Source: an uncultured Planctomycetia bacterium
GTDB lineage: Bacteria > Omnitrophota > Gorgyraeia > Pluralincolimonadales > Pluralincolimonadaceae
Direction of reading: 5' to 3'
NCBI GenBank assembly: GCA_964650515.1
Contig: CAZYUB010000007.1
Location: 20,837 to 84,836 of the forward strand
Length of the DNA stretch: 64,000 nucleotides
Positions within the stretch are counted from its first letter, which is position 1, and each line of letters starts with the position of its first letter. Under the pieces are notes generated by a model. The model worked only from the letters and a program-made list of their open reading frames with translations, was not told where the DNA came from and ran no database searches. This document shows, piece by piece, positions 20,107 through 56,874 of this stretch. The position numbers and the translations under genes are program-made.

Positions 20107-20119
20107 CAAAAATTCACCC

Positions 20120-20177: not shown

Positions 20178-22620
20178 TAACAGGAACAGGCGCGGCGCAG
20201 CCCTGATCATGACGGTGGGGGTGCTCAGCATGCTCGTGCTCATAGGCGTCTCGTTCGCCGCTACTACGCAGGCCATATACAGGGAGGCAAGGAATTACTC
20301 CAATTCCGTGAAGGCGAGATACCTCGCCGAAGCGGGGATAGCGAGGGCGATAGCCGAACTCCGCTGCGGCGCGGAAGGCGCGGTATCGGACGCGGTAGAT
20401 ACGCAGGCGGAGGGCTGGTATGCCGGATATTCCGCCGTTCTCGGCGGCGGCAGGTACCAGGTGAGCGGCACGGATTGCGCGGCCAGGATATATATAAACG
20501 ATACCAACCCGAACCTCAGCGCCATGCTTGAAAACCTCACGGCGGCACTCATATCCATGGACGAGCCGCTTTCAGCCGGGGACGGCGCCGCGATAGTATC
20601 GAACCGGCCGGCCGAAGGTTATATGAGCGAGCAGGAGGTGGAAGAGCCGTTCAGGCCTTACGTTACCGTAAGGGCGTTCCGGGATACGGCCGTCTATTCG
20701 AACGCTTCGCCTTTTCCGGCAGTCCCGAGGGCGCCCGTAAACGTCAATACCGCTTCCAAGCCGGTACTTAAAGCCGTCCTGTCCGGAATAGAAGCGCTGC
20801 ATATGTGCCCGAGGTGCGGAGGCGACGGGACGATATTCGCCGCAAGCGCGTGCCCGGATTGCGGGGGGACCGGCGGCCTAAGGATCACCTCTGCGGAGGC
20901 GGATGGGCTCGCGGACTACATAATTGCGAACCGCCCGTATTCGACATGGGGCCAATTCTATAACTCGATAAAATCCTGCGCAAGTATAGGAGCGCAGGAC
21001 GCGGACCTCGTGATGGCGAACGCGAACCCGAACGCGGGATTCGCGCCCGGGGCGCGCAATTACGGCTGGGCAAGCGGCGCGGGGCGTATCGGCAAAGATA
21101 TCGACCCGGCGGACAGCGGACGCGGCCTTACAACTCACACGACGGAATTCTGTTTCAATTCGGGGGGATATTACGATATCGTCTCGACCGGGACGGTAGA
21201 GGCAGGCGCGGGGACGGTCGTGGCTTCAAGGAGCATAAGGTCTGTCGTGAAGATATTCGATATCTGGAGGCAGACAACGCAGTCGGAATTCCAGGCGGGC
21301 GCCATGAGCGGCCTGCAGAGCTATCCGGAGCCGATAGGCGCGGGCATAGCGCCGGCGGCGTTCGACGGGCAGCTGATGCTCGCGACGAACGAGGACCCGT
21401 CCACCGCCAATACGCTGCTGAGGGCAAGCTTCAACGACGGGCTCGACCTCGATTCGGCGGCGAACGCGAATATCGTCAGGGATCCGGCGAGCACCTGCTC
21501 CGTGGGGAGCGTGGCCGACGCGTCGGACCCGGGCAGCTTACTGCCGGACGGCGTCTTCGTCAACAAAAAGTCCAACGATTACATATCGTTCATGGAGAAC
21601 TGGAGCGGCACCTATAACATGGCGAAGGCGGACATGGGGACGCTTTCGCTCTGGGTCAAAGCCGTATCCGGCGGAGAGGTGTATTCGGGGATGAGCTTCT
21701 CCGGTTACGAGATAGACACGTACGGCAACGGGCATACTGACGGCGGCCCGCCGTGGGATTTTTCGCTCTTCGAGATACACCCGAGCGGCTTCATTCCCGG
21801 CTCTCCGTTCGGCGACTGGAACTGGTGGAGGCCGGGTTACGCGAACAGGACGGAGGTATGGTTCTACGAACAGTGGGACGCCGCCCTGCCCGAGAGGCCT
21901 ATCGGATTTATCGGGTTCCAGGAGGTCGGAAGCGGCATCGGCGGTGGCAACGTCTCGCAGATAATGAGCACAGGCCGCGCGAGGAAGAACTGGGCGCCGG
22001 GCACATGGCACCATGTCGTCTTCACGTATGAATTGAGCAATCCCGCCGACCCGAACTGCATGACGGGGACTAAGAAGATATACATAGACGGCGCCGAGCC
22101 CCCGCATTACGCCTATGACACGATATACCACCGGCTTAACGGCGATGTCCGCGACATTACCCTCGGCACGTCGGACATCAATAACAGCCATTCAGACGGC
22201 ACCTATATAATAGACGAGTTCAGGTCGGAGCACGCCTGCGCGACGGCCGCGCAGGTCATGGCGGAATTCGCGTCCGGCAGATATTACGATAACAGCGACG
22301 CGGAATTCACGTCGTCAGCGTTCGACGCTGGAGAAGCGCGCATCGGCACGGTATCGTGGACTGAACACATGCCCGCGAGTGTCGCCGGAGGCGATATACG
22401 ATTCGATATAGACAACGGCTCGGGATGGCTCGGCGGGTATGCCGCGCGCAACGACCCAGCGGGATCCCCCGTGGACGCGATGACCACCGGGACGAACCTT
22501 ATAAGGTATAAGGCGTATTTCGTGAATTCGGGTACGGGGCTTACCGATACGCCGGTCCTCGATGACGTGACCGTCACTTATTTGAGAAGGGCGGAAATAC
22601 TTTACTCAAGGGAGGAATGA
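20155..22620 (+). CDS. PilX/GspK-like N-terminus (RRGAALIMTVGVLSMLVLIGVSFA) fused to a large secreted domain with a Cys4 knot and a C-terminal LamG/ConA-like lectin domain
   Basis: Minor-pseudopilin-like N-terminus; CPRCGGDG..CPDCGG; WHHVVFTY..KKIYIDG LamG signature; C-terminal RYKAYF..TPVLDDVTVTY module shared with the giant ORF at 59871. Start uncertain (ATG 20155 lies inside the repeats; alternative ATG 20209). Confidence 0.6.
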   Translation: MHWCIQVYNRNRRGAALIMTVGVLSMLVLIGVSFAATTQAIYREARNYSNSVKARYLAEAGIARAIAELRCGAEGAVSDAVDTQAEGWYAGYSAVLGGGRYQVSGTDCAARIYINDTNPNLSAMLENLTAALISMDEPLSAGDGAAIVSNRPAEGYMSEQEVEEPFRPYVTVRAFRDTAVYSNASPFPAVPRAPVNVNTASKPVLKAVLSGIEALHMCPRCGGDGTIFAASACPDCGGTGGLRITSAEADGLADYIIANRPYSTWGQFYNSIKSCASIGAQDADLVMANANPNAGFAPGARNYGWASGAGRIGKDIDPADSGRGLTTHTTEFCFNSGGYYDIVSTGTVEAGAGTVVASRSIRSVVKIFDIWRQTTQSEFQAGAMSGLQSYPEPIGAGIAPAAFDGQLMLATNEDPSTANTLLRASFNDGLDLDSAANANIVRDPASTCSVGSVADASDPGSLLPDGVFVNKKSNDYISFMENWSGTYNMAKADMGTLSLWVKAVSGGEVYSGMSFSGYEIDTYGNGHTDGGPPWDFSLFEIHPSGFIPGSPFGDWNWWRPGYANRTEVWFYEQWDAALPERPIGFIGFQEVGSGIGGGNVSQIMSTGRARKNWAPGTWHHVVFTYELSNPADPNCMTGTKKIYIDGAEPPHYAYDTIYHRLNGDVRDITLGTSDINNSHSDGTYIIDEFRSEHACATAAQVMAEFASGRYYDNSDAEFTSSAFDAGEARIGTVSWTEHMPASVAGGDIRFDIDNGSGWLGGYAARNDPAGSPVDAMTTGTNLIRYKAYFVNSGTGLTDTPVLDDVTVTYLRRAEILYSREE

Positions 22621-22623
22621 CAG

Positions 22624-23469
22624 ATGAGATACTGGATGATATCGATTGCGCTGGCGCTCATGATCGTGAATACGGTATCGGCGGAGACGGGATCGGCCGT
22701 CGAGGGCTATAGCCCCGCGGTTCCGCTGCCTTCAAAAATGCCCGCGGAAGCCGGGATAAAGATATCGAAAGCCGCGATAGATTTTTCCGGCGGTGAATAC
22801 CGCGTAAAAGTCAGCGGCAGCACCGGCCTTCCCGACAAGGCGAGGATATACGTCTTCCTGAAGAAGGGGGAGTTTCCGCTGGACTGCAAGATCGCGCGCG
22901 CGGAAGGAGGCAGGTTCTCGGTAGAGCTCGGGCCGTTCCGGGTAAAACTGCCGATAGGCATATATAATGTGGAGGCGTCGCTGACGGCGGCGAGAGCATC
23001 CGGCGCGAAAGACATATACCGTCTCGTGGCCGGTAACCCCGAAGACGCGGTAAAAGAGGAAGAGTCCAGCAGGGCCGCGGTCTCGGCAAGCCTGGCTTCT
23101 GTCAGCGCGCTGTATGATGAGCTAGAGCAGAAGCGCGCGCAATACAAGGACAGTTTCGACCCGGCTGAATGGAGGAGATGGTCGGAAGGGTGGACTGCCC
23201 GCCTCAGGAACGAACAGCAGGCGGTCGATAACAACATAAAACCGCTGTTGGCCGGCGATTATTCGGGCCCCGGCCAGGCGCTTTCGCAGCTGATAAGGGA
23301 CCTTGACCAGCTCGGAAGGGTGTATTCGTCCGAACTGGACGGTGGCGGTATCAAGGATGCCTACCCTTATGCCTTCAGGGACCCCGCGCAGCTCAGGGCG
23401 GTCATCAACGAAGGCCTTAAAAATAGCAAAAAAGTCGTATTGACAAACTGTGGCCTAAATGGTATATGA
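22624..23469 (+). CDS. Secreted hypothetical protein
   Basis: Signal peptide; no recognisable motifs; 3 nt after the PilX-like gene. Confidence 0.5.
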   Translation: MRYWMISIALALMIVNTVSAETGSAVEGYSPAVPLPSKMPAEAGIKISKAAIDFSGGEYRVKVSGSTGLPDKARIYVFLKKGEFPLDCKIARAEGGRFSVELGPFRVKLPIGIYNVEASLTAARASGAKDIYRLVAGNPEDAVKEEESSRAAVSASLASVSALYDELEQKRAQYKDSFDPAEWRRWSEGWTARLRNEQQAVDNNIKPLLAGDYSGPGQALSQLIRDLDQLGRVYSSELDGGGIKDAYPYAFRDPAQLRAVINEGLKNSKKVVLTNCGLNGI

Positions 23470-23505
23470 ATGGTATACTAATGGTATTAATTGGTATAGT
23501 ATAAT
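23440..23505 (+). promoter_or_regulatory. TTGACA-17-TATATG promoter with four GGTATA repeats at 11/11/10-bp spacing plus TATAAT (site B)
   Basis: GGTATA at 23461, 23472, 23483 and 23493; TATAAT at 23500-23505. Confidence 0.55.
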
Positions 23506-23520
23506 CCCACACGAAAGGAG

Positions 23521-24276
23521 GTGAAAAGATTGAAATATCTGATCGCATTGTTGGCATGCATGTTCATATTCGCGGCTTCTCCCGAGGCCCACGCAGTCCT
23601 GAATTGGGCGGGAGAGGACACCGACGCGCCTTCAAACGCGTTGAACTGGAGCTACGGGTTCTCGCAGGGAGGCGACACGGTAGAGCTGGTCACGACGCTG
23701 GACGGCAACTGCGCGCCTTCGGTAACCACCGAAGCGCATTCGGGCGCCGAATCGGTCAAGTTCCACTGGACCCACACGAAGGACACGGTCAACTGGGGAA
23801 CAAGGACAGCCTTGCAGGTTGGAAGCGACGGCAACGGCGGAGACAGCCTAGGCACCTCGATGATGTTCCACGATATCTCAACGGCGAACAACCTGACCTT
23901 CTGGGTCAAGGGCGCGGTTGGCGGGGAACAGTTCAGGGTCGCCCTGAACAGCGGCTGGGAAGGATCGGCGTATCCGACCGACCAGACGAACCAGCTGCTC
24001 GTGAGCGGAGTAACAAGCTCATGGCAGCAGGTAGTGATGCCCCTGTCGGGATTCACGTATGATTTCCAGTATTCGGAGAATCCCGGCCCGATCGACCTGG
24101 CCCATTTGACGGGCGTCAGGTTTGTCATAGAGTCGGGCGAGCCGACCGGCGAAGGGACGGTGTATATCGATGACATCTCGTTCGATACGCAGACGGTCCC
24201 GGAACCCGCGAGCCTTCTTTTACTCGGCTCCGGCTTGAGCGGCATGTTGGTCTTTGTAAGGAAGCGTAAAGCATAA
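23521..24276 (+). CDS. PEP-CTERM-anchored secreted protein with a carbohydrate-binding-module-like beta-sandwich domain
   Basis: C-terminal VPEPASLLLLGSGLSGMLVFVRKRKA (PEP motif, TM segment and basic tail). FWVKGAVGGEQFRVAL motif shared with 5 other proteins in the window. Start may be TTG 23530. Confidence 0.75.
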   Translation: MKRLKYLIALLACMFIFAASPEAHAVLNWAGEDTDAPSNALNWSYGFSQGGDTVELVTTLDGNCAPSVTTEAHSGAESVKFHWTHTKDTVNWGTRTALQVGSDGNGGDSLGTSMMFHDISTANNLTFWVKGAVGGEQFRVALNSGWEGSAYPTDQTNQLLVSGVTSSWQQVVMPLSGFTYDFQYSENPGPIDLAHLTGVRFVIESGEPTGEGTVYIDDISFDTQTVPEPASLLLLGSGLSGMLVFVRKRKA

Positions 24277-24331
24277 GCTCTCGTCCCCCAACGAGAAGGA
24301 TCCGTCCGTCTCCCGAATCCTTTACGGCAGC

Positions 24332-24377
24332 TTGACAAATTCCCGCTATGTGGTATACATAAGGTATGGGTGGTATA
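24332..24377 (+). promoter_or_regulatory. TTGACA-16-TATACA promoter with three GGTATA repeats (site C)
   Basis: GGTATA at 24352, 24363 and 24372, upstream of the regulator gene. Confidence 0.5.
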
Positions 24378-24419
24378 TACCAATCCTAACCGAATATTGT
24401 ATCTAAGAGGAGGCGGGAG

Positions 24420-25529
24420 ATGGACGGTAAGTTTGACAAGAAGAGGCCGATGCTCTTTTACCAGCAGTTCGCGGATATGATCAGGGACCAGATCAACAGG
24501 AACCGGTATAAACCGGGCGAATACATCCCTTCCGAAAGGCAACTGAGCAAGGATTTCAAGCTCAACAGGATGACAGTGAGGAAGGGCATCGCGATGCTGG
24601 TGGAGGAAGGCCTGCTGCAGCCGTTCAGGGGGCGCGGGACTTTCGTTACGGGTTATCCCCAGCCCGGGAAGAAGACCCGGTCCAGGGATATCGGCTACGT
24701 CTTCATAAAGGATTTCAATTTTCCGCTTTCGAAGAATCCTTATTACACGGAGATCCTTGAAGGGGCGGAAGCCGAAGCTTCAAAACTGGATTATAAGTTC
24801 TTTCTAATGTCAGTAGATTACGATGAGAGCAAGCTAAGGGAGCTCGCGTCGCGCATAATCAGCGATAAGATAGGCGGGGCGGTCTTCGTAGGAAGGCTCG
24901 ACGAGAAGGTCGAGGAGATAATAACCTCCCTCGCGAAACGCAAGATACCCGTCGTCGTCATAGACAGGTACGTGCCCTATAACGGCGTCAGCGCGGTGCT
25001 GACCGACAATGCGAAGGGCGCGTATGACGCCGTGCAATACCTGGCTTCGCTCGGCCACCGGGACATAGGGTTCATTACGGGGCCGAAGTCGAACCAGGCG
25101 GTGCAGGAGAGGATCGGCGGATTCGAGAAGGCCGCCGGGGAACTCAAGCTCAAGGTGAAGGCGGAGCACACGGCCGAGAGCGACCTGCATATACACGGCG
25201 GATACCTCGCGATGAAGAAGATACTCGGGGCGCGCAAGTTCCCCACGGCGGTCTTCGCGATAAACGACGAGGCGGCGATAGGCGCGATGCGCGCGATACA
25301 CGAGAAGGGGTTGAAAATCCCGAAGGACATATCGCTCGTAGGGTTCGACGACATCGAATGGGCTTCGCACACGATGCCCGGGCTTACTACCATCAAGATC
25401 TACAAAAAAGAGATCGGCGCCGCTGCCGTGAAGAAACTCACGGAGCAGATCGAGGATAAGGCCGCTCTACCGGTCAAGAACGTGATGCCGGTAAAGCTTG
25501 TCCTCAGGGAGAGCGCCTCTCATGCCTAA
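24420..25529 (+). CDS. AraR-like transcriptional regulator (GntR-type winged HTH + LacI/GalR-type sugar-binding domain)
   Basis: PSERQLSKDFKLNRMTVRKGIAMLVEEGLL HTH, then a periplasmic-binding-protein-like fold. Confidence 0.8.
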   Translation: MDGKFDKKRPMLFYQQFADMIRDQINRNRYKPGEYIPSERQLSKDFKLNRMTVRKGIAMLVEEGLLQPFRGRGTFVTGYPQPGKKTRSRDIGYVFIKDFNFPLSKNPYYTEILEGAEAEASKLDYKFFLMSVDYDESKLRELASRIISDKIGGAVFVGRLDEKVEEIITSLAKRKIPVVVIDRYVPYNGVSAVLTDNAKGAYDAVQYLASLGHRDIGFITGPKSNQAVQERIGGFEKAAGELKLKVKAEHTAESDLHIHGGYLAMKKILGARKFPTAVFAINDEAAIGAMRAIHEKGLKIPKDISLVGFDDIEWASHTMPGLTTIKIYKKEIGAAAVKKLTEQIEDKAALPVKNVMPVKLVLRESASHA

Positions 25530-25547
25530 CATCTTGAGGAGATATAA

Positions 25548-27905
25548 ATGGGTAGTAAGCTGGATAAGTACGGTTATTTCGATAACGATAAGAAAGAATT
25601 CGTCATCGCGAGGCCCGACACGCCTCTTCCGTGGATCAATTACCTCGGCTGCGAGCAGTATTGCGGCCTCATGTCGAACACCGCGGGCGGCTACAGCTTC
25701 TGGATAGACCCGCTCGAGAACAGGATACTGCGTTACAGGTATAATAATATCCCTTCCGACAGGGGCGGCAGGTACATCTACCTGAGGGACAACAAGTCCC
25801 GCGATTTCTGGTCCGCCTCGTGGCAGCCCGTCCTTAAAAGCCCCGATAAATACAAATACGAGTGCCGCCACGGCCTCGGGTATACCGTCATATCATCGGA
25901 ATATTCCGGCATAAAGACGAAGACATCATATTTCGTCCCTCTCGGGGAGAACCTCGAGATATGGATGATGGAGGTCGAGAACGCCTCGAAGAAAGACAGA
26001 GACCTTGACGTCATTTCTTTCGTGGAGTTCTGCCTGCCGAACGCGCTCGAGGACATGACGAACTTCCAGGCGAACCTTAACACCGGCGAGACCGACTACG
26101 AGGACGGCACCGTCTACAACATCAGCAAACACCGCGTTACTAAGGCGCATTTCTCGTTCTTTACCGTCGCCAACCGGAAGGTCAATAGCTTCGACAGCAA
26201 GCGCGACGACTTCCTCGGGCCTTACGCCGACCTCAGCGCGCCGCGCGCCGTCGTGGAGGGCAAGGGCAAGAACGGCATCAGCTGCGGCTGGTCGCCGGTC
26301 GGGTCGCACAATATAGGCATGAAACTGAAGAAGGGCGAGTCGAAGACGGTGATATTCATCCTCGGCATCGCGCATTCGAGGAAAGAGGTCGACGGCTACA
26401 GGAAAAAATATTCCAACAGGGCCAAGGTCCTCGACGCATTGAAAAACCTCAACGGGCACTGGGAGGAGAACCTCGACAAATTCAAGGTCGAGACTCCGGA
26501 CGGCGACCTTGACCTGATGGCTAACATCTGGAACCAGTACCAGTGCCGCTCGACGTTCAACTGGTCGCGCTCGGCCTCATACTATGAATCCGGCATCGGC
26601 CGCGGCATGGGTTTCCGCGACTCGAACCAGGACACGCTCGGTTTCGTGCATATGGTCCCGGAGAAGGTGAAGCAGAGGATAATCGACCTCGCCTCCACGC
26701 AGTTCGAGGAGGGCGACGCGCACCACCAGTATTCCCCGCTCACGAAGAAGGGAAGGGAGCGCGGATATTCCGACGACCACCTCTGGCTCATATATTCCGT
26801 CGCGGAATATATCAAGGAGACGGGCGATACGAATTTCCTCTTAGAGAAGATCCCTTACAACAACGAAAAGACAGGCACACTGCTCGAGCATCTCGAAAGG
26901 GCGATAGATTATTCGGTCAAGAACACCGGGCCGCACGGCCTGCCGCTCTCCGGGTTCGCCGATTGGAACGACTGCCTTAACCTGCGCGGGCCTAACAACA
27001 AGGGCGAGTCGGTCTTAGTCGCGCAGATGCTCGTGCTGGCCGCGAAGGAGATGGCCGGCCTGCTGAGGTTCGTGAAGGAGCCGAACAAGGCGGCGCGTTT
27101 CGACGAGATAGCGGAGCGCATGACGGAGAGGATAAACGAGGTCGCCTGGGACGGCGCGTGGTATGTCAGGGCTTATGACGACAACTCGAACGTGGTCGGC
27201 TCAAAAAAGAACAAGGAAGGCAGGATATTCCTTGAGTCGCAGGGATGGGCGGTCATGTCGGGCGTGGCGCCGAAAGACAGGGCGATAAAGACGCTCGATT
27301 CGGTCGAAGAGCACCTCGCCACCGAGCACGGCGTCATCCTCCAGCAGCCGGCTTACAACGATTACCACAAGAGCCTGGGCGATGTCTCGTCATACCCGCC
27401 GGGGCTCAAGGAGAACGCCGGCATATTCTGCCATCCGAACCCGTGGGTCATGATAGCTGAATGCATAGCCGGGCGCGGCGACAGGGCGCTTTGGTATTAC
27501 AAGGCGATACTGCCGCCGTCGAAGGACCCGGATGTCCGCAGGGTCGAGCCGTATATCTATTGCCAGATGGTCGCCGGAAGGGACCATCCCGATTTCGGCG
27601 AGGGCAAGAACTCGTGGCTTACCGGGACTTCGGCGTGGAATTTCGTCGCGGTCTCGAAGTATATAATCGGGATAAGGCCGGATTACGACGGGCTTGTCGT
27701 CGACCCCTGCATACCGGAAAAATGGGCGGGGTTCAGGGCGGCGAGGAAGTTCCGCAACGCCGTCTACGACATCTCGGTGGATAATCCCGGGCATGTCAGC
27801 AAGGGCGTATCTTCGGTAAAGGTGGACGGGAAGTTCATAGAGGGGAACAAACTGCCCGTATTCAACGACGGCAAGAAACATTCCGTCGAGATAACTATGG
27901 GCTAA
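25548..27905 (+). CDS. GH94 cellobiose/cellodextrin phosphorylase
   Basis: Length (785 aa) and GH94-like motifs throughout; no signal peptide, so cytoplasmic. Confidence 0.85.
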   Translation: MGSKLDKYGYFDNDKKEFVIARPDTPLPWINYLGCEQYCGLMSNTAGGYSFWIDPLENRILRYRYNNIPSDRGGRYIYLRDNKSRDFWSASWQPVLKSPDKYKYECRHGLGYTVISSEYSGIKTKTSYFVPLGENLEIWMMEVENASKKDRDLDVISFVEFCLPNALEDMTNFQANLNTGETDYEDGTVYNISKHRVTKAHFSFFTVANRKVNSFDSKRDDFLGPYADLSAPRAVVEGKGKNGISCGWSPVGSHNIGMKLKKGESKTVIFILGIAHSRKEVDGYRKKYSNRAKVLDALKNLNGHWEENLDKFKVETPDGDLDLMANIWNQYQCRSTFNWSRSASYYESGIGRGMGFRDSNQDTLGFVHMVPEKVKQRIIDLASTQFEEGDAHHQYSPLTKKGRERGYSDDHLWLIYSVAEYIKETGDTNFLLEKIPYNNEKTGTLLEHLERAIDYSVKNTGPHGLPLSGFADWNDCLNLRGPNNKGESVLVAQMLVLAAKEMAGLLRFVKEPNKAARFDEIAERMTERINEVAWDGAWYVRAYDDNSNVVGSKKNKEGRIFLESQGWAVMSGVAPKDRAIKTLDSVEEHLATEHGVILQQPAYNDYHKSLGDVSSYPPGLKENAGIFCHPNPWVMIAECIAGRGDRALWYYKAILPPSKDPDVRRVEPYIYCQMVAGRDHPDFGEGKNSWLTGTSAWNFVAVSKYIIGIRPDYDGLVVDPCIPEKWAGFRAARKFRNAVYDISVDNPGHVSKGVSSVKVDGKFIEGNKLPVFNDGKKHSVEITMG

Positions 27906-27908
27906 CGC

Positions 27909-29033
27909 ATGAAGGAGACACAGATGAAGAAAGCGATGATCCTGGCAATGATGCTGGCGGTGCCGCAGTTGTGCATGGCCGCCGAATACGGGACCGTGTT
28001 CAAGGAGAATATGGGCAAGTACACATACGCATACCCGTCCACGAGCACGATCGAGATAGCCGAGCAGGGCGCGAAGGCCGGAAGGTCCTGCCTCCTGTTT
28101 GTCCTCGACCATAAGGAATACTCGGGCGGCGCGTTCGCGTTCAGCGATCCGATTGACGTTTCCCCGATAAAGGATACCGGCTCGCTCGAGTTCTGGATAA
28201 AGGGCGGCAACGGCGGGGAGAGGCTTGAGGTCGCGCTCGTGAACGAGCAGGCCGACGGTAAAAAAGCCGAAAGCTTTTTAAGCTTAAATTCCGTAAGCAG
28301 CGTCGACAACCGGTGGAAGAAGGTAGAGATACCGCTGAAGCTCTTCCCAAAGAACGGCATCTACTGGGACGCGGATAAGGGCAAGGAGCTCCCGCTCGCG
28401 TTCGACTGGAAGAACGTGACGGAATTCAAGGTCCGGACGAGGCCTACGCAGGGCCAGGATGACATAAAACTCTATTTCGACGATATCGTCTTCACGAAAG
28501 ACGCGGCTCCGGGCGTCAACGCGCTTGTCGTGTTCGACGGGGCGTTCCCGTCCTATACGTACGCGTATCCGGAGAGCGGAAGCAGGATAACCGTATCGGC
28601 CGGTGACGTGTTCGAGGGCAAGCCCTCGGCGAAGATATCGCTTAACGCGAAGGACTATTCGGGCGCCGCGTTCGCTTTCGGGCCCGTTGACCTCAGCGGA
28701 ATGCGCGAAGCGGGAGTCCTCGAGTTCATGATGAAGAGCGGCGCGGGCGGCGAGAAGGTGGAGATATGCCTCGTGCAGGCGGCAGAGCCGAAAGTAGAGA
28801 CCGGCGTGAGCCTGAGCGGCATAAAACCCCTGACTGCCGAATGGCAGAAATACGAGATACCGCTTAGCATGTTCCAGGACAGGGGCAAGTACTGGGACGA
28901 GGTCTCCAAGAAAGAGGTCGGCGCTGACGTGAAGAACTGGGACAAGATCGGCGAGCTCAAGTTCAAGATAAGGAAGGACGAGAACAAAGAATGCTCCCTA
29001 TACATAACGGACGTAAAGTTCAGATTGCAGTAA
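27909..29033 (+). CDS. Secreted protein with two tandem carbohydrate-binding-module-like beta-sandwich domains
   Basis: Signal peptide; internal duplication (EFWIKGGNGGERLEVALV and EFMMKSGAGGEKVEICLV). Confidence 0.6.
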   Translation: MKETQMKKAMILAMMLAVPQLCMAAEYGTVFKENMGKYTYAYPSTSTIEIAEQGAKAGRSCLLFVLDHKEYSGGAFAFSDPIDVSPIKDTGSLEFWIKGGNGGERLEVALVNEQADGKKAESFLSLNSVSSVDNRWKKVEIPLKLFPKNGIYWDADKGKELPLAFDWKNVTEFKVRTRPTQGQDDIKLYFDDIVFTKDAAPGVNALVVFDGAFPSYTYAYPESGSRITVSAGDVFEGKPSAKISLNAKDYSGAAFAFGPVDLSGMREAGVLEFMMKSGAGGEKVEICLVQAAEPKVETGVSLSGIKPLTAEWQKYEIPLSMFQDRGKYWDEVSKKEVGADVKNWDKIGELKFKIRKDENKECSLYITDVKFRLQ

Positions 29034-31288
29034 TTGCGGCGGCGGTATTGCTCTGTTCATGCGCGAAGAAACCCGAAGTCGAATTCAAATTGCGGGTTTT
29101 CGACGGTGATATGGCCGGCTGCAGGGAATATTGGGGCGACTCCTGGATAGGAAGCGGAAGCGGAAGCCGCGTCGACCGGGCCGACGACAAGATAAAACTG
29201 GCCGACCTTGGAAAAGAAGGGCCTGTCCCTGAGGGGCTTGCGCTCGATTTTTCCGGGGAGAACGTTAAGGGCGGCTGGTGGTCCGCTTGTCTGGCCCGGC
29301 CAATGTGGCAGGTGATGTCGCTCGATAATTACAGGGACAAGGGATGCCTCGAGATGTGCGTAAAGGGCGCCTCCGGAGGGGAGGAGTTCATCATAGGGCT
29401 TGCAGACAAGAGCAAGCTTAAGAGGGAGGCAATGCTGCCTTCCTCAAGGTTCTTCGCGGTCACTACGCAATGGCAGCGCGTAAGGATACCCCTGTCGGAA
29501 TTTGCCGCTGTAAAGCAAAGCCTCGATTTCGACAGGATATCGCACATCATAATCAGGAACGGGAACAAGCCGGGGAAATTCGCCTTTTATATAAAGGACG
29601 CGGCTTTCCGTTCGGAGCTCGTCGAGAAGTCCTATCCGCTCATCAAGGTGGACCAGGCGGGATACGCGCCTGCGGAAAAGAAGGTAGCCAAGGTATCCGG
29701 TATCGGGATAAAGGGCTACGGCGGCAGCGAATTCCATTTGATCGACGAGGATACAGGCAAGGAGGCCTTCTCCGGCAGGTTGAAGTACGTCTCGGGGCGC
29801 GATAGAGCGACGGGCGACGCGGTGTTCGACGCGGATTTTACCGCGTTCGACAGGCCCGGAAGGTACAGGGTGCGTATAGTGAGAATAGAGCACGATAGCC
29901 CCGTTTTTTGCGTCTCGGATTCCGCTTATGATACCGTGCTGCGCGATTCATTGAGGATGTATTTTTACCAGAGGTGCGGGACGGCCCTCGAGGCCGGATG
30001 CGCCGGCAAATGGACGCACGCTTCATGCCATAACGATGATGCGTACCTGTTCTCCGACGAGTCGAAAAAGATCGAGGCGACGGGCGGCTGGCATGACGCA
30101 GGTGATTACGGGAAATATGTGGTCAACGGCGGCATCGCCGCGGGAACGTTGCTGGCGATATACGAGCTCCGTCCGGGGAACTTTTCAGACGGCCAGCTCG
30201 GTATACCCGAGAGCGGGAACTCCGTCCCCGATATTCTCGACGAGGCGAGGCGGGAGGTCGAGTGGTTCCTGAAGATGCAGAGGGAAGACGGCGCGGCCTG
30301 CCATAAGCTGGCCGGGGAATATGCCCCCGTCGACAGGTCTCCGGACCGGGACCAGGTAAAAAGGTTCATAATGGACATATCGACCCCTGCAACCGCGAAC
30401 CTGGCCGCTGTCGCCGCGATAGCCTCGCGGACCTACGGCAAGCATGACCCGGTTTTCTCGAAGAGATGCCTGGATGCGGCGGAAAGGGCGTGGGCGTACC
30501 TGGAGTCCCACCCTTCGAATTATCCGCCGAGGGGCTACTCCGATCCTGTTTTGGATAAGGGCGAAATTGACGGAGGCGATTACGGCGACGACCCGCAGGG
30601 AAAATGGACTCAGGGCGACAGGGACGAAAGGTTCTGGGCCGCCTGCGAACTTTTCCGCGCTACGGGAAAAGGCGTATACCATGATTACATAAAAGCGAAT
30701 TACGGGATATTCAAGGCCGGCCACGCGATGAACTGGCAACAGGTGCAGAACCTGGGCCTCTATTCATATTGCATGTCCGCGCCAGCCGATACTTCGCTGA
30801 AGAAGGAGATAATGGAGTCCCTCGGCAAGTACGGCAAGGGAATATTGAAGGCCTCCCGCGCCAACGCTTATAGCAACGCAAACCGCGAATATGAATATTA
30901 CTGGGGCTCGAACACAGTCGCGCTGAATTACGGCGTCGACCTGATATACCTGTACGAGATGACCGGAGACCGCAGGTACAGGGACGCCGCGCTCGACCAG
31001 CTGCACTATATACTCGGCAGGAACGTCTTCGGGCTGTCGATGGTAAGCGGCATCGGAGAGAAAAGTATAGAAAAATATTATCACACATGGTTTAATAATA
31101 GCGATTACGACACATTGCCCCCGGGATTCATGGTCGGGGGGCCGAATGCCGATAATTTCAGGGTATCGCGGTATCCGGGGCGCTGCTACAAGAACGTCGG
31201 CTCCGACTTCACCGTCGACGAGATAGCGGTAAATTACAATGCGCCGCTGGTCTTCGTATCGGGTTATTTCAAGGAGGATAAGAGATGA
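28991..31288 (+). CDS. GH9 endoglucanase lipoprotein (carbohydrate-binding-module-like domain, CelD-type Ig-like domain, GH9 catalytic domain)
   Basis: ATGGWHDAGDYGKYVVNG and DEIAVNYNAPLVFV GH9 signatures; VDQAGYAPAEKKVAKV Ig-like N-terminal domain; LLCSC lipobox-like sequence. Confidence 0.85.
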   Translation: MLPIHNGRKVQIAVIAAAVLLCSCAKKPEVEFKLRVFDGDMAGCREYWGDSWIGSGSGSRVDRADDKIKLADLGKEGPVPEGLALDFSGENVKGGWWSACLARPMWQVMSLDNYRDKGCLEMCVKGASGGEEFIIGLADKSKLKREAMLPSSRFFAVTTQWQRVRIPLSEFAAVKQSLDFDRISHIIIRNGNKPGKFAFYIKDAAFRSELVEKSYPLIKVDQAGYAPAEKKVAKVSGIGIKGYGGSEFHLIDEDTGKEAFSGRLKYVSGRDRATGDAVFDADFTAFDRPGRYRVRIVRIEHDSPVFCVSDSAYDTVLRDSLRMYFYQRCGTALEAGCAGKWTHASCHNDDAYLFSDESKKIEATGGWHDAGDYGKYVVNGGIAAGTLLAIYELRPGNFSDGQLGIPESGNSVPDILDEARREVEWFLKMQREDGAACHKLAGEYAPVDRSPDRDQVKRFIMDISTPATANLAAVAAIASRTYGKHDPVFSKRCLDAAERAWAYLESHPSNYPPRGYSDPVLDKGEIDGGDYGDDPQGKWTQGDRDERFWAACELFRATGKGVYHDYIKANYGIFKAGHAMNWQQVQNLGLYSYCMSAPADTSLKKEIMESLGKYGKGILKASRANAYSNANREYEYYWGSNTVALNYGVDLIYLYEMTGDRRYRDAALDQLHYILGRNVFGLSMVSGIGEKSIEKYYHTWFNNSDYDTLPPGFMVGGPNADNFRVSRYPGRCYKNVGSDFTVDEIAVNYNAPLVFVSGYFKEDKR

Positions 31289-31881
31289 AAAAGGTTTTTT
31301 TGGCAGCCCTGATGATGCTGCAGGCAGCGGCCCTGTGCGCGGCGGTAGTTTACGGGATCTTCTCCGAGGAGATAGAGAAGGAAGGTACCTACCACTATTC
31401 CTACCCGACGGACGGTACGAGCGAGATAAGGACCACGAACATAGAGAAACATTCGGGGAATTATTCGATGAAGGTCACGCTTAACCCTTCCGGGTTTTCG
31501 GGCGCGGCTATAGGCAATTACCCGCCGATGGACCTGTCGAAATGCCGTGAGACTGGCGCGCTGGAATTCTGGATAAAAGGTGAGAACGGCGGCGAGAAGT
31601 GCGAGATACTCCTTCTCGACGACTCGAATAACGACGGCAACAAGACGGAAGTCGGGGTGGCAATAACGCCGAAATATGTGGCGATAACAAAGGACTGGCA
31701 GAAGGTCAGCGTCCCGCTGAAGGCGTTCCCGAACGACGGGCAGTACTGGGACGGCGAGAAGAACGTCAAGAATGCCGTCAATTGGAGCGAGATCGTGGAG
31801 TTCAAGGTCGCGAGCCGCCCCTATGACAAGAACGCCGGGTTCACGGTCTATATAGACGACGTGAACATAGTGATGCCATGA
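31285..31881 (+). CDS. Secreted single carbohydrate-binding-module-like domain protein
   Basis: Signal peptide; EFWIKGENGGEKCEILLL motif. Confidence 0.6.
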   Translation: MKKVFLAALMMLQAAALCAAVVYGIFSEEIEKEGTYHYSYPTDGTSEIRTTNIEKHSGNYSMKVTLNPSGFSGAAIGNYPPMDLSKCRETGALEFWIKGENGGEKCEILLLDDSNNDGNKTEVGVAITPKYVAITKDWQKVSVPLKAFPNDGQYWDGEKNVKNAVNWSEIVEFKVASRPYDKNAGFTVYIDDVNIVMP

Positions 31882-34760
31882 TAAAAAACATAAGATCGTT
31901 CCTCGCGATGGCCGTATGCGGCGCCTTCATTCTGCCGAACTCCGGGAGCTGGTATACGAAGGACGATTCGCCGGATAAGGGCGCCTCCGTGATAAGCTTT
32001 AGGGTCGACGAGAAAGCGGACGCAACAGGCGGCGACGGCTCGATATCGTTCGAATATTCCCTGGGTAAAGGTTTCCAGTGGCCGTATGTCCAGTTATTGT
32101 GCCCGCTTTCGCAGGATGGTGCCGCGGGCACCAAGGACCTCAGCGCGTATTCCGGCGTGTCGCTCTGGATCAAGACCGAAGGAAAGACGCAGGTGAGGAT
32201 CGTCATATTCACCTGCGAAGACGGCGTTACCGACATAAATAACAGCGGCACCTACAGGCACAACGAAGTATCGATAAAGACATCCGACAGGTTCGTCCAT
32301 TACAAGATACCTTTCGAGCAGTTCAAGACGCCGCAGTGGTGGTTGAGCCAGCATACCGGTGCCAAGAAACAGCCCGACTGGAGCAAGTCGATAGAATTCG
32401 CGGTAATGGAAGACGACAGCCTCTCTGCCGGCGCGGGTGAGAAGGGGTGGATAGACGGGATAACTTTTTACAGGGGCCCGCTCGAGATAAAGGCCGCGTC
32501 GCCCGCGGACAGGGAATCCGGGGTGAAAGCGGACGCGCCGGTAAAGATATCGTTCAGTTTTCCCGTGACGACCGAAGAACTCCAAAAAAATTTCCGGCTC
32601 ATAAAGACGGACCAGGGCGGAAAACCCGTCGAATGCGCCGTAACCGTGTCCGCTGACGGGCGGGAAGCGGTGTTTACTCCCTCGAAACCGCTCGATGCCA
32701 AGAGCCGTTATCTTTATAAGATATACAAGAGACTCGTGAACTTCACGACGGAATACGGTATCGGGAATATCTACGGTCGCGTGACCGGCGAGGATGGAAA
32801 GCCCGTCGCCGACGCGTCGGTAAGGACATATCCCGACGATAAGAGGACGAGGACCGACAAGGACGGCAGGTACTATTTCGAGGGAGTGAACCTCGACAGG
32901 ATATACCTCTACTGCGTGAAAGACGGCTATTATACGGGATTCGGAGTGTTGCCGCTCGTGCCGAAGGAGGATTTCTATGTCGATTTCAGGCTTTCGGAAA
33001 CCCCGAGACGGGACGGGAAAGTCCAGCCGTTCCTGTTCGGCGTGAATTTCAACGACTGGGAGACCGAAGGGTACCTTCTACCGGTAAAGGACAAGGTCAA
33101 GGCCGCGGGTTTCACGATAATGAGGTGGGGCGGCATCGGCAAGGACCTTATCGAGGTCGACGAGGCGAAGATAGACGAGTTCATCTCATACGCGAAAGCG
33201 GTAAGGGCTGAACCCGTCGTGCAGGTCAGGCTCATTAAAGGCAGTATCGAAGAGGCGGTCAAGGCGGTCAAATACTGCAATATCGCCAAGCGCTACAAGG
33301 TGAAATACTGGATAATCGGCAACGAGCCCGACTGGTATAACGAGAAGCAGTGGGGGCCTTACGGCGCGGAGGATTACTGCAGGGATTACCGCGCGTATTA
33401 CAACGCTATGAAGGCGGTGGACCCCTCGATAAAGATAATGGGCCCCGAGCTGACCGCGAAATACTATCTCGCCGCGCCGGACAACTGGATAGAGCCGTTC
33501 CTCAGGGAATGCGGCGATATAATAGATATCATATCGATACACCTCTACCCGTACAGCGGCAAGCAGCCGCCCCAGCAGACGCTTATGGGCCTCGGCAATT
33601 ACAGGCGCGTGATAGACAGCATCAGGCAGAAGGCGCGGGAGATCTCCGGGCGCGAGATACCCATTGCGGTCACCGAGTATAACCTGACATGGGACTGGCT
33701 CGCCGAGGGCGACGGCGCGAACAATTCGTTTTACGCGGGCCTCTACCTCGCCGACTTCCTCGGCGCAATGGCGGAGAAACAGGTGTTCATCGCGAACTTC
33801 TGGGACATCATGGAGAAGGGCACGATCGGGTTCCTCGAGCATGAGACGTTCAAGCCGTACCCGACCTATTACACGTTCATGATGTACAAGAATTTCCGCG
33901 GCGAGCTCATAGATACCGTGACGGACAAAAAAGAGCTGAAGGTCTACGGCGCGAAGGACAAAAGCGGCAATGTGGTATTGATGGTCATCAACAAGAGCGG
34001 CAGCAGGCAGGTCGAGGCGGAACTCGCCCCGGGGGCCCTGAAGAAAATACAGGACAGGTATTATTCCTTCCCGCCGTATTCGCTTACTTGCCTGAAGATC
34101 GGCTCCGGCGGCAGGTGCTCCGACGCGTGGCAGTATTCGAAGGAGCTATACGATAAAGGCGAAGGCATGCTGTCGGGCAGGGAGCTTGTAAAGAAGACCG
34201 TGCTGAAAGAGCTTGCCCCTGCGGCCGCGCAGGCCGGGCCCGGGGCAGGCAAAGGCCTGATGGATGATTTCGAAAGCAGGGACTTCGTATCACCGATGGG
34301 CGGCGCATGGATACCGGAAGACGACTCGGTAAACGGCGGCGATTCGACGGCGAAGATATCGCTTGCCGAAGGCAACGGCAGCGCCTCGGGCCTGAAGTTC
34401 GAATATACGCTTGGCGGGAAATTCAACAACAGGTATTCCATATGCGCGGCGGTATTCGACGGCCCCGTTGACCTTTCGAAGCACAGGAAAATGGTATTCT
34501 GGGCCAAAGGGTCGGCAAAGCCCTTCAAGATAAAGGTCTGCTCCGCCTCCGTAGGCGATTATGACTACCATGGCACCGCAATAACTCCCTCCGAAGATTG
34601 GAAAGAATATTCCGTTGACCTGCCCTCCCTCAAGCAGGAGGGTTGGGGCAGGAAAACAGATATTGACCTCACGCAGGTAAACAAGATACAATTTGAATCA
34701 GGCACGAAGACCGCCGGTGACGAAGGTTTCATTGTCGTTGACGATATCCGTTTCGAATAA
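31878..34760 (+). CDS. Multidomain secreted glycoside hydrolase: CBM-like domain, Ig-like domain, CarboxypepD_reg-like domain, clan GH-A TIM-barrel catalytic domain, C-terminal CBM-like domain
   Basis: GRVTGEDGKPVADASV..DKDGRYYF; YWIIGNEPDW (acid/base) and IAVTEYNL (nucleophile). Family not resolvable by eye (GH5/30/44-like). Confidence 0.65.
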   Translation: MIKNIRSFLAMAVCGAFILPNSGSWYTKDDSPDKGASVISFRVDEKADATGGDGSISFEYSLGKGFQWPYVQLLCPLSQDGAAGTKDLSAYSGVSLWIKTEGKTQVRIVIFTCEDGVTDINNSGTYRHNEVSIKTSDRFVHYKIPFEQFKTPQWWLSQHTGAKKQPDWSKSIEFAVMEDDSLSAGAGEKGWIDGITFYRGPLEIKAASPADRESGVKADAPVKISFSFPVTTEELQKNFRLIKTDQGGKPVECAVTVSADGREAVFTPSKPLDAKSRYLYKIYKRLVNFTTEYGIGNIYGRVTGEDGKPVADASVRTYPDDKRTRTDKDGRYYFEGVNLDRIYLYCVKDGYYTGFGVLPLVPKEDFYVDFRLSETPRRDGKVQPFLFGVNFNDWETEGYLLPVKDKVKAAGFTIMRWGGIGKDLIEVDEAKIDEFISYAKAVRAEPVVQVRLIKGSIEEAVKAVKYCNIAKRYKVKYWIIGNEPDWYNEKQWGPYGAEDYCRDYRAYYNAMKAVDPSIKIMGPELTAKYYLAAPDNWIEPFLRECGDIIDIISIHLYPYSGKQPPQQTLMGLGNYRRVIDSIRQKAREISGREIPIAVTEYNLTWDWLAEGDGANNSFYAGLYLADFLGAMAEKQVFIANFWDIMEKGTIGFLEHETFKPYPTYYTFMMYKNFRGELIDTVTDKKELKVYGAKDKSGNVVLMVINKSGSRQVEAELAPGALKKIQDRYYSFPPYSLTCLKIGSGGRCSDAWQYSKELYDKGEGMLSGRELVKKTVLKELAPAAAQAGPGAGKGLMDDFESRDFVSPMGGAWIPEDDSVNGGDSTAKISLAEGNGSASGLKFEYTLGGKFNNRYSICAAVFDGPVDLSKHRKMVFWAKGSAKPFKIKVCSASVGDYDYHGTAITPSEDWKEYSVDLPSLKQEGWGRKTDIDLTQVNKIQFESGTKTAGDEGFIVVDDIRFE

Positions 34761-34789
34761 CGGAACTTTCCAGGTCGAAAACTGTCTAA

Positions 34790-35332
34790 ATGGGTGAAGA
34801 GAGCATAAATTTCGATGAACTGGTCCTTGAGCATAAGGACAAGGTCTTCAATTTGTGCTACCGTTTCCTCGGCAATTACGAGGAAGCCGACGATTGCGCG
34901 CAGGAGACCTTCGTAAAGGTATACCGCTCTTTGAAGGGCTTCAGGCGGGAGTCGTCCGTCTCGACGTGGATCTACAGGATAGCGGTAAACACCTGCAAGA
35001 ACAGGATCGCTTCGGCGCAATACCGCCGCAGCAGGATAATGGTCCGGCTCGATGAGCCGAAGGAGACCGACGACGGCGCACGGCCCATTGAGATAGGCGA
35101 CGGGAAACTTTCCCCGGCGGCGGAAGCCGGCAGGAGGCAGATGGGCGAGTTGATACAGGAAGCGATAGATTCCCTGCCGCGCGACCAGAAGTCGGTGGTG
35201 ATATTGCGCGATGTGGAGGGGCTTTCATACGAAGATGTCGCCGCGGCCACGGGCCTGAATATCGGGACGGTGAAATCGAAGCTCGCGAGGGCCAGGCAGG
35301 AGTTGAGGGAAAAATTGAAGGGGCTGGTGTAA
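34790..35332 (+). CDS. ECF (sigma-24 type) RNA polymerase sigma factor
   Basis: Region 2 (FNLCYRFLGNYEEADDCAQETFVKVYR) and region 4 HTH (DQKSVVILRDVEGLSYEDVAAATGL). Confidence 0.9.
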   Translation: MGEESINFDELVLEHKDKVFNLCYRFLGNYEEADDCAQETFVKVYRSLKGFRRESSVSTWIYRIAVNTCKNRIASAQYRRSRIMVRLDEPKETDDGARPIEIGDGKLSPAAEAGRRQMGELIQEAIDSLPRDQKSVVILRDVEGLSYEDVAAATGLNIGTVKSKLARARQELREKLKGLV

Positions 35333-36115
35333 ATGGATAACAAAGACAAGAGGGAGATGCTGCCGGAGGACGAATACCTGAAGCAGATGAGTTCCCTGCC
35401 GAAGGTGAAGGCCCCGGATGATTTCCTGCAGAAGGTGCGCGCGCGCATAGAGAGGCGCCCGCTCCGCGAAAGGATAATCGACGCCCTTTTCGTCCCGTTC
35501 AGGATAAAGATACCGCTCGAGGTCGCGGCCGTAACAGCGACGCTCTTGCTCGTTATGTCCAGCCTCGACGTTGTCAAGCCGTCGAAGCAGCTCGCGTCCG
35601 TGCCGAAGTCCGACGTCGAGGAAGCGGTCGTCGGCAAGGCGGAAGCCGGGGGAGCCTCCCAGGATGAAAAAGATGCTTTCAAATACCAGGTATATGTAAA
35701 TAAGCCGAAAGAGGAAGAAAAAGCTGTTACTGAAACGCCCGTGACGACAGAGGGCCTCAAAATGAAGAAGGCGGAATATAAAGAGAGCCGGCTGTGCGAG
35801 AAAGAGGTCGATGCAGTATGCGCGGATGCGGCTGCGCCCGCACTCAGGTCATCAAAAGGATTTTTACGGGCGGATACGCTTCCGGCGATAAAAGGATATA
35901 TAGAATCGTCGCAGGGCGTCATAACCCACATCGAGACCGACAAGAATACCGGAAAGGCGCTGTATATTGACGCCGAGATACCCGCCGCGAACTATGAATC
36001 GTTCAAGAAGAAGCTGGAAGATCCCGCCATATCCCGCAATATAAAGATTGAGCCCATCCTGAAGGATTCCCCGCAGGGAAGCAATATAATCCAAATCCGC
36101 ATTTTTATGATATAA
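35333..36115 (+). CDS. Putative anti-sigma factor (single-pass membrane protein)
   Basis: Immediately downstream of the ECF sigma with a TAAATG overlap; one TM segment (VAAVTATLLLVMSSL). Confidence 0.55.
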   Translation: MDNKDKREMLPEDEYLKQMSSLPKVKAPDDFLQKVRARIERRPLRERIIDALFVPFRIKIPLEVAAVTATLLLVMSSLDVVKPSKQLASVPKSDVEEAVVGKAEAGGASQDEKDAFKYQVYVNKPKEEEKAVTETPVTTEGLKMKKAEYKESRLCEKEVDAVCADAAAPALRSSKGFLRADTLPAIKGYIESSQGVITHIETDKNTGKALYIDAEIPAANYESFKKKLEDPAISRNIKIEPILKDSPQGSNIIQIRIFMI

Positions 36116-36135
36116 TCTAGAAAACGGAGGTCTGC

Positions 36136-45002: not shown

Positions 45003-45005
45003 TTT

Positions 45006-49933: not shown

Positions 49934-49965
49934 TAGGGCTTGAAACGGCCGGCCTCAGGCAGGAG

Positions 49966-56873: not shown

Positions 56874-56874
56874 G

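Follow-up and report, generated by a model that had tools for sequence, protein, structure and literature searches.

The 64-kb stretch of contig CAZYUB010000007.1 analysed here (64,000 nucleotides, hereafter the window) carries a run of genes on the + strand in which a beta-sandwich resembling carbohydrate-binding modules (CBMs) recurs in five proteins, denoted A–E (Table 1). The best-supported reading of these genes is a beta-glucan operon that is neither cellulosomal nor a polysaccharide utilization locus (PUL). We consider it probable that they form a conserved operon for the utilization of a beta-1,4-glucan (cellulose, mixed-linkage glucan or xyloglucan), in which one ancestral beta-sandwich was duplicated and shuffled into five exported proteins. 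One of these, A, ends in a PEP-CTERM sorting signal, and we propose, far more tentatively, that A and its nine relatives might form a class of exosortase substrates not described so far, in which PEP-CTERM sorting puts a CBM30 adhesin for glucan on the cell surface, as the cell-to-substrate tether of a compact, SusCD-free and cellulosome-free system confined to one Omnitrophota-related clade.

The recurring module and its family

The initial annotation had proposed that one module, recognizable by a motif block, was reused in six secreted proteins of this region. The five open reading frames (ORFs) that it listed are all present on the + strand. Among all six-frame ORFs of the window, the strict form of the main block, [EF][FM][WCM][IV]K[GS]xxGGExxx[IV]xL, occurred three times, in the first module of B (B1), in C and in D, against a chance expectation of 3.4e-8, and the block Y-x-Y-[AS]-Y-P also occurred three times (twice in B, once in D), against 0.04 expected. 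Near-matches to the strict motif are found in the second module of B (B2; EFMMKSGAGGE) and in A (TFWVKGAVGGE), while both end modules of E, to which the motif had also been ascribed, are off-motif (SLWIKTEGKTQ and VFWAKGSAKPF).

In local BLASTP comparisons, B1, B2 and D were 36–39% identical in pairs, with E-values of 1e-29 to 1e-35 (37% and 4e-32 for B1 versus B2). C and A matched these three modules with E-values of about 1e-8, the C-terminal module of E matched D (2e-5), and the sole match of the N-terminal module of E was the C-terminal module of the same protein (3e-8). Small profiles, with orthologues from related loci added, were aligned with hhalign; against the B/D profile, C scored 98.3%, A 98.7%, the C-terminal module of E 95.5% and its N-terminal module 54%, while A scored 96.7% against the C-terminal module of E, and the two modules of E scored 98.1% against each other. 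The seven modules are thus connected by profile comparison, and the description as one domain holds at the superfamily level, with three subgroups. When all ORFs of the window were scanned with hidden Markov models (HMMs) of the modules, no additional copy turned up, so that the total is five proteins with seven modules; recurrence of the module was upheld by motif, BLASTP and hhalign, and the count of six proteins was not.

To judge from sequence, CBM30 is the best name for five of the modules, B1, B2, C, D and, as a divergent CBM30/CBM11-like member, A. The Pfam CBM30 model (PF21582, cut-off 27 bits) matched B over two stretches with 77.1 bits (E-value 2e-21), and C and D with 69.8 and 61.5 bits (3.6e-19 and 1.2e-16). 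The CBM11 model (cut-off 27 bits) gave 40, 16 and 32 bits for B, C and D, passing in B and D and always lying under the CBM30 score. The CIA30 model (PF08547, cut-off 24 bits) passed on residues 811–948 of E, its C-terminal module (40.3 bits), and reached 14.5 bits on C, under the cut-off. The N-terminal module of E had no Pfam match, and neither E module is significantly similar in sequence to the founding CBM30 modules; both are all-beta in the AlphaFold2 (AF2) model, and from their sequences they are best described as CIA30-like cousins. CBM11 and CIA30, which had been put forward as candidate families, are therefore sister families of CBM30 here: CBM30 scores higher for B, C and D, and the CIA30 suggestion fits the C-terminal module of E.

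In C, the N-terminal module (residues 52–232) matched the CBM30 of Clostridium thermocellum (CtCBM30) with E-values of 3e-20 (1WMX) and 9e-17 (2C24), and a profile of 13 modules matched CtCBM30 (2C24/1WMX) at about 1.5e-18 and CtCBM11 (1V0A) at 3e-8. The blocks LEFxIKGxxGGE and WQxVxIPL are common to the modules and to CtCBM30, which in the HMMER alignment reads YLEFDIKGKEGGEDFVIGF ... TTDWQHVKIPL, indicating that the motif of the initial annotation is a family signature. In the alignment of the modules, only C keeps the GWW...W tryptophans of CtCBM30. The B and D modules lack them, and have a conserved G-x-YWD insertion and an N-terminal YxYSYP block.

Reuse of a glycan-binding type of beta-sandwich across the locus was thereby borne out by family and fold matches to CBM30 and CBM11, and the modules are predicted from their family to bind carbohydrate. 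We considered the possibility that A, B and D are instead non-binders, that is, structural or chaperone-like beta-sandwiches of the CIA30/NDUFAF1 type that assemble or scaffold the enzymes. The CIA30 match in E, the presence of NDUFAF1 (7ZKQ) among the fold matches of A, and the fact that the role of CBM30-only proteins was called unclear in Fibrobacter succinogenes (PMC3079729) would be consistent with such a role. However, the matches to ligand-binding CBM30 and CBM11 are much stronger than those to CIA30, the same module holds the canonical N-terminal CBM position in a glycoside hydrolase family 9 (GH9) enzyme, signal peptides are present on all of these proteins, and no partner domain of the dockerin or cohesin type was found in A–E (Pfam, E ≤ 0.1), which also leaves them without the hallmark of a cellulosome. 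This explanation is highly improbable.

Enzymes, gene order and conservation

From the regulator gene through E, the genes are separated by gaps of 3–18 nt or overlap, with the start of D overlapping the stop of C and the stop of D overlapping the start of E (ATGA-type coupling). A scan of positions 20000–39500 for promoter and terminator consensus sequences gave counts no higher than in shuffled sequences. The GH94 protein aligned end to end with the cellobiose phosphorylase 3QDE (E-value 7.7e-265), compared to an E-value of 8e-33 over the C-terminal part only for a cellodextrin phosphorylase (5NZ7). Cellodextrin phosphorylases are also longer, at about 980–1010 aa with an extra N-terminal domain, versus 785 aa here. 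The earlier label of a cellodextrin locus is thus to be corrected, the enzyme being of the cellobiose phosphorylase type. Since it has no signal peptide, it is expected to be cytoplasmic.

Sec-type signal peptides were recognized by inspection in A, B, D, E and the GH3 protein, and C has a possible lipobox (LLCSC). The best PDB match of the GH9 domain of C was the endoglucanase 3X17 (5e-94), followed by the xyloglucanase BoGH9A (6DHT; 7e-72). The GH3 protein matched beta-glucosidases (7MS2, 2e-173; 3ABZ, 1.6e-139) and, given its signal peptide, is probably periplasmic or exported. The catalytic part of E was harder to place: the Pfam match to GH39 is marginal (28.7 versus 26 bits), sequence matches in the PDB were to GH51 (4e-13), GH79 (3e-6) and GH39 (9e-6), and the AF2 model (predicted local distance difference test (pLDDT) 68.4) gave fold matches to GH79, GH51, GH39 and GH44. 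All eight homologues compared keep the clan GH-A glutamates of the NEP (E483) and TE (E600) motifs. The TIM barrel of E thus fits no single GH family and, from these comparisons, may represent an unclassified family of clan GH-A; 13 homologues of E were present among 5.8 billion cluster representatives. The genes for an extracytoplasmic function (ECF) sigma factor, an anti-sigma protein and a DUF4412 protein, between E and GH3, were presumptively assigned to the system by position alone.

The locus is conserved in related contigs (L001–L008). In every contig long enough to judge, the A orthologue is immediately followed by this regulator and the same set of enzyme genes, and these loci retain the order A, regulator, GH94, tandem CBM30, CBM30-GH9, CBM30, E-type enzyme. 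Synteny extends to two further lineages at ≈50% amino-acid identity (L001–L003 and L004–L006), with small changes in order, and to the close relatives L007 (colinear with the window, 88% nucleotide identity) and L008, a metagenome-assembled genome (MAG) contig named [quoted passage not shown] (colinear with window positions 19811–34145, 83% nucleotide identity). By their NCBI names, the E orthologues belong to Candidatus Omnitrophota (three MAGs), and a 48%-identical one to Aureabacteria. The colinearity with L008 and the names of the E orthologues place the source of the window in Candidatus Omnitrophota. Another protein, 86% identical to E (P0012, MFA5316341.1), is labelled "Dehalococcoidales bacterium" at NCBI, probably because its contig was mis-binned. 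Among the genes listed for L001–L003 there is none of the D type (single CBM30), and all three carry a gene for a 214-aa secreted protein without Pfam match between the GH94 and tandem-CBM30 genes (L001:14421–15065). This protein was considered as a further kind of module but left unassigned, since it scored only 30.7% against the B/D profile. No TonB-dependent receptor or SusD homologue was found by Pfam in the window ORFs judged to be coding, and none is listed in L001–L007.

Alternatively, the locus might be directed not at cellulose but at another beta-glucan, for example xyloglucan, mixed-linkage beta-1,3-1,4-glucan, or a glucan of microbes or of host surfaces, with the stand-alone CBM30 proteins having diverged accordingly. 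This explanation departs from the preferred one in substrate and not in mechanism. It is consistent with the place of the BoGH9A xyloglucanase among the best GH9 matches, with a weak resemblance of the catalytic domain of E to GH44 xyloglucanases and to GH79/GH51, with the absence of the CtCBM30 tryptophan cluster from the B and D modules, and with the top fold matches of A, which are CtCBM11 in complex with a mixed-linkage tetrasaccharide. Lichenan is bound by CBM30 (PMC4687162), and Omnitrophota have often been proposed to attack the surface polysaccharides of other cells (PMC10066038). On the other hand, the best GH9 match is an endoglucanase, the nearest relatives of the GH94 and GH3 enzymes, cellobiose phosphorylase and beta-glucosidases, imply cellobiose or glucose as the end product, and the locus has no side-chain-removing enzymes (xylosidase, galactosidase). 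We regard a target other than cellulose as rather unlikely.

Protein A, its sorting signal and the proposed mechanism

Protein A starts with a predicted signal peptide (MKRLKYLIALLACMFIFAASPEAHA, cleaved before V by inspection) and carries the tail VPEPASLLLLGSGLSGMLVFVRKRKA (the last 26 residues) at its very C-terminus. This tail passed both curated cut-offs, with 27.5 bits for PF07589 (cut-off 20.7) and 27.9 bits for TIGR02595 (cut-off 16). No other PEP-CTERM tail was found in the window, in agreement with the initial annotation, which had given the tag to the first protein only. The AF2 model of A consists of a helix (residues 2–18), a beta domain and a second helix (231–250), with no further transmembrane segment in between. 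Its best Foldseek matches were to CtCBM11 (6R3M/1V0A; E-values 2e-9 to 5e-9), followed by CtCBM30 (1WZX/2C24, 2e-8 to 8e-8; also 1WMX) and then by NDUFAF1/CIA30 (7ZKQ), with TM-scores of 0.59–0.73, normalized to the target, for the CBM11 and CBM30 structures. PF21582 is among the precomputed matches of the A orthologues P0004–P0008. Together with the predicted fold, these matches suggest that A belongs with the CBM30 family despite the sub-threshold score of its own module.

In all ten members of the A family, which span 35–95% identity, VPEP, the hydrophobic helix and the basic end do not vary, whereas flanking residues do; this speaks for selection on the tag and disfavours a fortuitous look-alike. 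The tail could still be a plain C-terminal membrane anchor, or resemble the signal by chance, leaving A on the periplasmic face of the inner membrane, for instance as a periplasmic protein that binds cellodextrins. Such a role would fit the lack of an exosortase in the window and of any exosortase linked to the lineage, and also the single PEP-CTERM protein in the window, where several are usual (PMC1569441). Yet the window is a small part of the genome, so that a single copy says little, and exosortases with tandem PEP-CTERM genes are common in Omnitrophota. With VPEP kept in ten of ten proteins and both HMM cut-offs passed, a plain anchor is unlikely.

The combination of a CBM30-like module with this tag is rare. 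Only nine homologues of A were found among the 5.8 billion cluster representatives, none of the best 150 of 308 relatives of D (50%-identity cluster representatives at E ≤ 1e-3) has a PEP-CTERM tail, and CBM30 and PEP-CTERM were nowhere mentioned together in the literature searched; nor did the parts of the literature on PEP-CTERM and "carbohydrate-binding module" that were seen offer a precedent for the fusion. It is a rare, new domain combination of two well-known parts. Stand-alone CBM30-like proteins, by comparison, are not unique to this locus: 48 of the same 150 relatives are no longer than 270 aa, and many have two or three modules.

Pfam and NCBIfam scans of the window for exosortases took in all ORFs of 180 aa or more that were judged to be coding (frame-overlapped ORFs excluded), together with a 143-aa ORF with four transmembrane segments and the terminal ORF, which is truncated. 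None of these matched an exosortase, EpsI or Bac_transf, and tblastn with two Omnitrophota exosortases against all six frames of the window gave a best E-value of 0.13, in line with the initial annotation, which had found no exosortase in the 64 kb. An ORF with six transmembrane segments and no family match (6042–6842) was considered as a hidden exosortase and discarded, since it has no similarity to exosortases.

The initial annotation had also implied that a PEP-CTERM protein without an exosortase nearby was an anomaly; it is the ordinary situation. According to Haft et al. (PMC1569441), genomes with PEP-CTERM proteins have a median of eight, tied by phylogenetic profile to one protein of the EpsH family, and every species with PEP-CTERM has genes for exopolysaccharide (EPS) production. 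Exosortases of Omnitrophota are located in EPS-type loci with a recurrent arrangement of a family 2 glycosyltransferase (GT2), exosortase, EpsI, Bac_transf and PEP-CTERM genes (L014:3858–4694, L032:6301–7356 and L034–L040). Those of L014 and L032 scored 185 and 181 bits with TIGR02602 (cut-off 105.55) and just under the XrtA-specific cut-off of 208 bits (186 and 180), and two to five tandem PEP-CTERM genes lie beside each of them. At E ≤ 1e-20, 1449 homologues of the L032 exosortase were found. Among the best 120 of them, identity is 56% or higher, and those with an NCBI name come almost all from Omnitrophota/Omnitrophica. A single exosortase, encoded in an EPS locus, serves substrates scattered over the genome, so that a 64-kb window without one is to be expected. 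The odds are strongly in favour of an exosortase elsewhere in this genome. In the literature searched, Omnitrophota and exosortases were mentioned together only in an unrelated context.

Under the beta-glucan operon model, the CBM30 modules of B, D and C and the CIA30-like modules of E, homologous to known CBMs, would bind individual chains of beta-glucan, gathering the enzymes at the substrate; CBM30 binds phosphoric acid-swollen cellulose (PASC), hydroxyethyl cellulose (HEC) and lichenan (PMC4687162). C and E, with their enzyme families and conserved catalytic residues, would cut the polymer, presumably to cello-oligosaccharides, which the exported GH3 beta-glucosidase would trim. Cellobiose would enter through a transporter encoded outside the locus and undergo phosphorolysis by the cytoplasmic GH94 enzyme. 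The GntR/LacI-type regulator, and possibly the ECF sigma pair, would control expression. After Sec export, A would stay anchored in the inner membrane through its C-terminal helix until an exosortase encoded elsewhere recognized VPEP and cleaved the protein. A would then pass to the cell surface or the exopolysaccharide layer, where its CBM30-like module would attach the cell to the glucan in the manner of a surface glycan-binding protein (SGBP).

Several observations weigh against parts of this model. On its own, the module of A scored 23.2 bits with CBM_11 and 21.9 bits with CBM30, both sub-threshold, and the AF2 model of A is of moderate confidence only (pLDDT 59.9, predicted TM-score 0.60). 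The 143-nt gap between A and the regulator weakens the case for co-transcription of A. The catalytic part of E, and with it the substrate specificity, is placed only at the level of clan GH-A, and since the B and D modules lack the CtCBM30 tryptophan cluster and have the G-x-YWD insertion, their ligand may differ. No sugar transporter (ABC, MFS, PTS or TonB-dependent) was found in or beside the operon (24420–39226) or in L001–L007. Finally, neither this genome nor any MAG with the locus could be linked to an exosortase: A and D had no exact entry in an index of 153 billion genes, the locus proteins MFA5148337, MFA5316341, MFA6356065 and MFA5093727 share no accession block with the exosortases (MBP/MCA/MCB/HB/OG/MFT/MBI), and four NCBI-sourced exosortases were traced to GCA_964515035.1, GCA_964477075.1 and others, none to GCA_002440765.1, an assembly that has the locus.

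Related systems and neighbouring genes

One of the closest known counterparts is the CBM30 of CelJ/Cel9D-Cel44A from C. thermocellum (1WMX, 1WZX, 2C24), which shares PF21582 and the LEFxIKGxxGGE and WQxVxIPL blocks with the modules described here. CelJ has the same N-terminal CBM30-Ig-GH9 order as C (PMC4687162), which also keeps GWW...W. Unlike in CelJ, there is no dockerin or cellulosome in this locus, the modules also occur alone, in tandem and fused to PEP-CTERM, and those of B and D have G-x-YWD in place of the tryptophan cluster. The closest functional analogue is F. succinogenes, a Gram-negative bacterium that has no cellulosome and uses CBM30/CBM11 cellulases, GH9 enzymes, one intracellular GH94 cellobiose phosphorylase and a secreted, non-catalytic CBM30-only protein, Fisuc_1525 (PMC3079729). 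However, it belongs to another phylum and relies on basic terminal domains, fibro-slime proteins and pili, compared to PEP-CTERM here, and in the present locus everything is contained in one operon with its regulator.

With PEP-CTERM/exosortase (EpsH, XrtA-like) sorting, A shares the signal peptide, PEP motif, transmembrane helix and basic cluster, and the phylum has the corresponding exosortase-EpsI-glycosyltransferase loci. It differs in that its passenger is a recognizable CBM, whereas under 10% of PEP-CTERM proteins have a match in Pfam (PMC1569441). As proposed for A, the SusE/F-like SGBPs of Bacteroidota are beta-sandwich proteins that bind a glycan without catalysis, are tethered to the surface and have their genes next to those of the enzymes and regulator for that glycan, and SGBP-B domains gave weak Pfam and fold matches here. 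In contrast to a Bacteroidota PUL, there is no SusC/SusD pair and the anchor is PEP-CTERM and not lipid, so that the analogy is functional only.

CBM duplication in a carbohydrate-active enzyme operon and a distant exosortase are both routine, and the finding, while real, is mostly ordinary. Modest interest lies in the host phylum, the PEP-CTERM-CBM30 fusion and the unclassifiable GH-A enzyme E. Neither cellulose use nor exosortases were mentioned in the Omnitrophota surveys searched (including PMC10066038). If the operon model is true, the locus provides a compact, self-contained beta-glucan blueprint in an uncultured phylum of the PVC group whose carbohydrate metabolism has barely been described. 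A would be a tractable exosortase cargo, its passenger being a CBM with a guessable ligand, which is unusual among PEP-CTERM proteins. If A is indeed an adhesin, the poorly understood PEP-CTERM system would gain a cargo with a predictable ligand, and some Omnitrophota, a phylum mostly seen as ultra-small and host-dependent, would live on or attack beta-glucans, possibly on other cells.

Table 1. Features of the probable beta-glucan locus in the window, with nucleotide positions unless residues are given.
Feature	Position	Strand	Evidence
Protein A, 251 aa: signal peptide, CBM30/CBM11-like module, PEP-CTERM tag	23521–24276	+	
A, Sec signal peptide	residues about 1–25, cut AHA/V	+	by inspection
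A, divergent CBM30/CBM11-like beta-sandwich	residues ≈25–224, nt 23593–24192	+	hhalign, AF2/Foldseek
A, PEP-CTERM tag: VPEP, hydrophobic helix, RKRKA	residues 225–251, nt 24193–24273	+	PF07589, TIGR02595
Regulator, GntR-HTH/LacI-type sugar-binding	24420–25529	+	PF00392, Peripla_BP_1/3/4
GH94 cellobiose phosphorylase, 785 aa, no signal peptide	25548–27905	+	PF17167 530 bits, PF06165 270 bits
Protein B, 374 aa: signal peptide, two tandem CBM30, no catalytic domain	27909–29033	+	PF21582
B, modules B1 and B2	27978–28508 and 28509–29030	+	PF21582; YTYAYP twice; EFWIKGGNGGE, EFMMKSGAGGE once each
Protein C, 765 aa: signal peptide, CBM30-Ig-GH9	28991–31288	+	PF21582 69.8, PF02927 55.3, PF00759 285 bits
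C, CBM30	29078–29626	+	Pfam
C, CelD_N Ig-like	29633–29878	+	Pfam
C, GH9 catalytic	29927–31258	+	Pfam
Protein D, 198 aa: signal peptide, single CBM30, no catalytic domain	31285–31881	+	PF21582 61.5 bits
Protein E, 960 aa: signal peptide, five domains	31878–34760	+	Pfam, hhalign, AF2
E, N-terminal CIA30-like beta-sandwich	31941–32477	+	hhalign to E C-terminal module 98.1%
E, Big_5	32478–32726	+	40.7 bits
E, CarboxypepD_reg	32769–32993	+	36.9 bits
E, clan GH-A TIM barrel and beta-domain	about 33045–34157	+	GH39 28.7 bits, PDB and fold matches
E, C-terminal CIA30-family module	34245–34757	+	CIA30 40.3 bits
ECF sigma factor	34790–35332	+	Sigma70_r2/r4_2 (1e-19, 6e-19)
Putative anti-sigma membrane protein	35333–36115	+	DUF2275, weak
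DUF4412 secreted protein	36136–36717	+	DUF4412 2.6e-11
GH3 beta-glucosidase, PA14 insertion, signal peptide	36704–39226	+	PF00933, PF01915, PF14310, PF07691

Directly upstream of A (20155–23469) are genes for an 821-aa GspK-like minor pseudopilin and a 281-aa protein without family. The former has a CxxC zinc ribbon and a LamG-like region, and gave weak matches to T2SSK and "Verru_Chthon cassette protein A". The corresponding position is occupied by large unannotated genes in L001 and L007 and by a prepilin N_methyl/DUF1559 gene in L004. These two genes may be partners of the locus with a role in secretion.

Downstream of the operon, a surface-glycan or EPS-type block on the - strand (41639–51189) encodes three GT4 proteins, a radical SAM protein, a GT2 fused to a domain with eight transmembrane segments, an ABC-2 transporter pair and an outer-membrane barrel of the MetA-pathway type, with no exosortase, EpsI or Bac_transf among its genes. 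It is followed by an IS200-like Y1 transposase (52689–53273) and a cluster (53710–59797) of an ExeA-like AAA ATPase, a GspC-like protein, a secretin, a TPR protein, a histidine kinase and an OmpR-type response regulator. In NCBIfam, the ATPase scored best with the XrtA/PEP-CTERM system-associated ATPase TIGR03015, at 170.6 bits against a cut-off of 324.5. The ATPase/secretin genes (53710–57927) were considered as part of an exosortase system and rejected, as this match is sub-threshold and no counterpart lies beside the L014 and L032 exosortases. After the secretin cluster, an ORF of at least 1376 aa (59871–63998) runs off the end of the window, with weak matches only (TafC fimbrial, GH130-like); giant secreted proteins flanked by secretion genes have been reported for Omnitrophota (bioRxiv 10.64898/2026.06.07.730766). 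Near the start of the window, positions 676–3628 encode two tandem radical-SAM proteins with an HMPTM N-terminal zinc ribbon.

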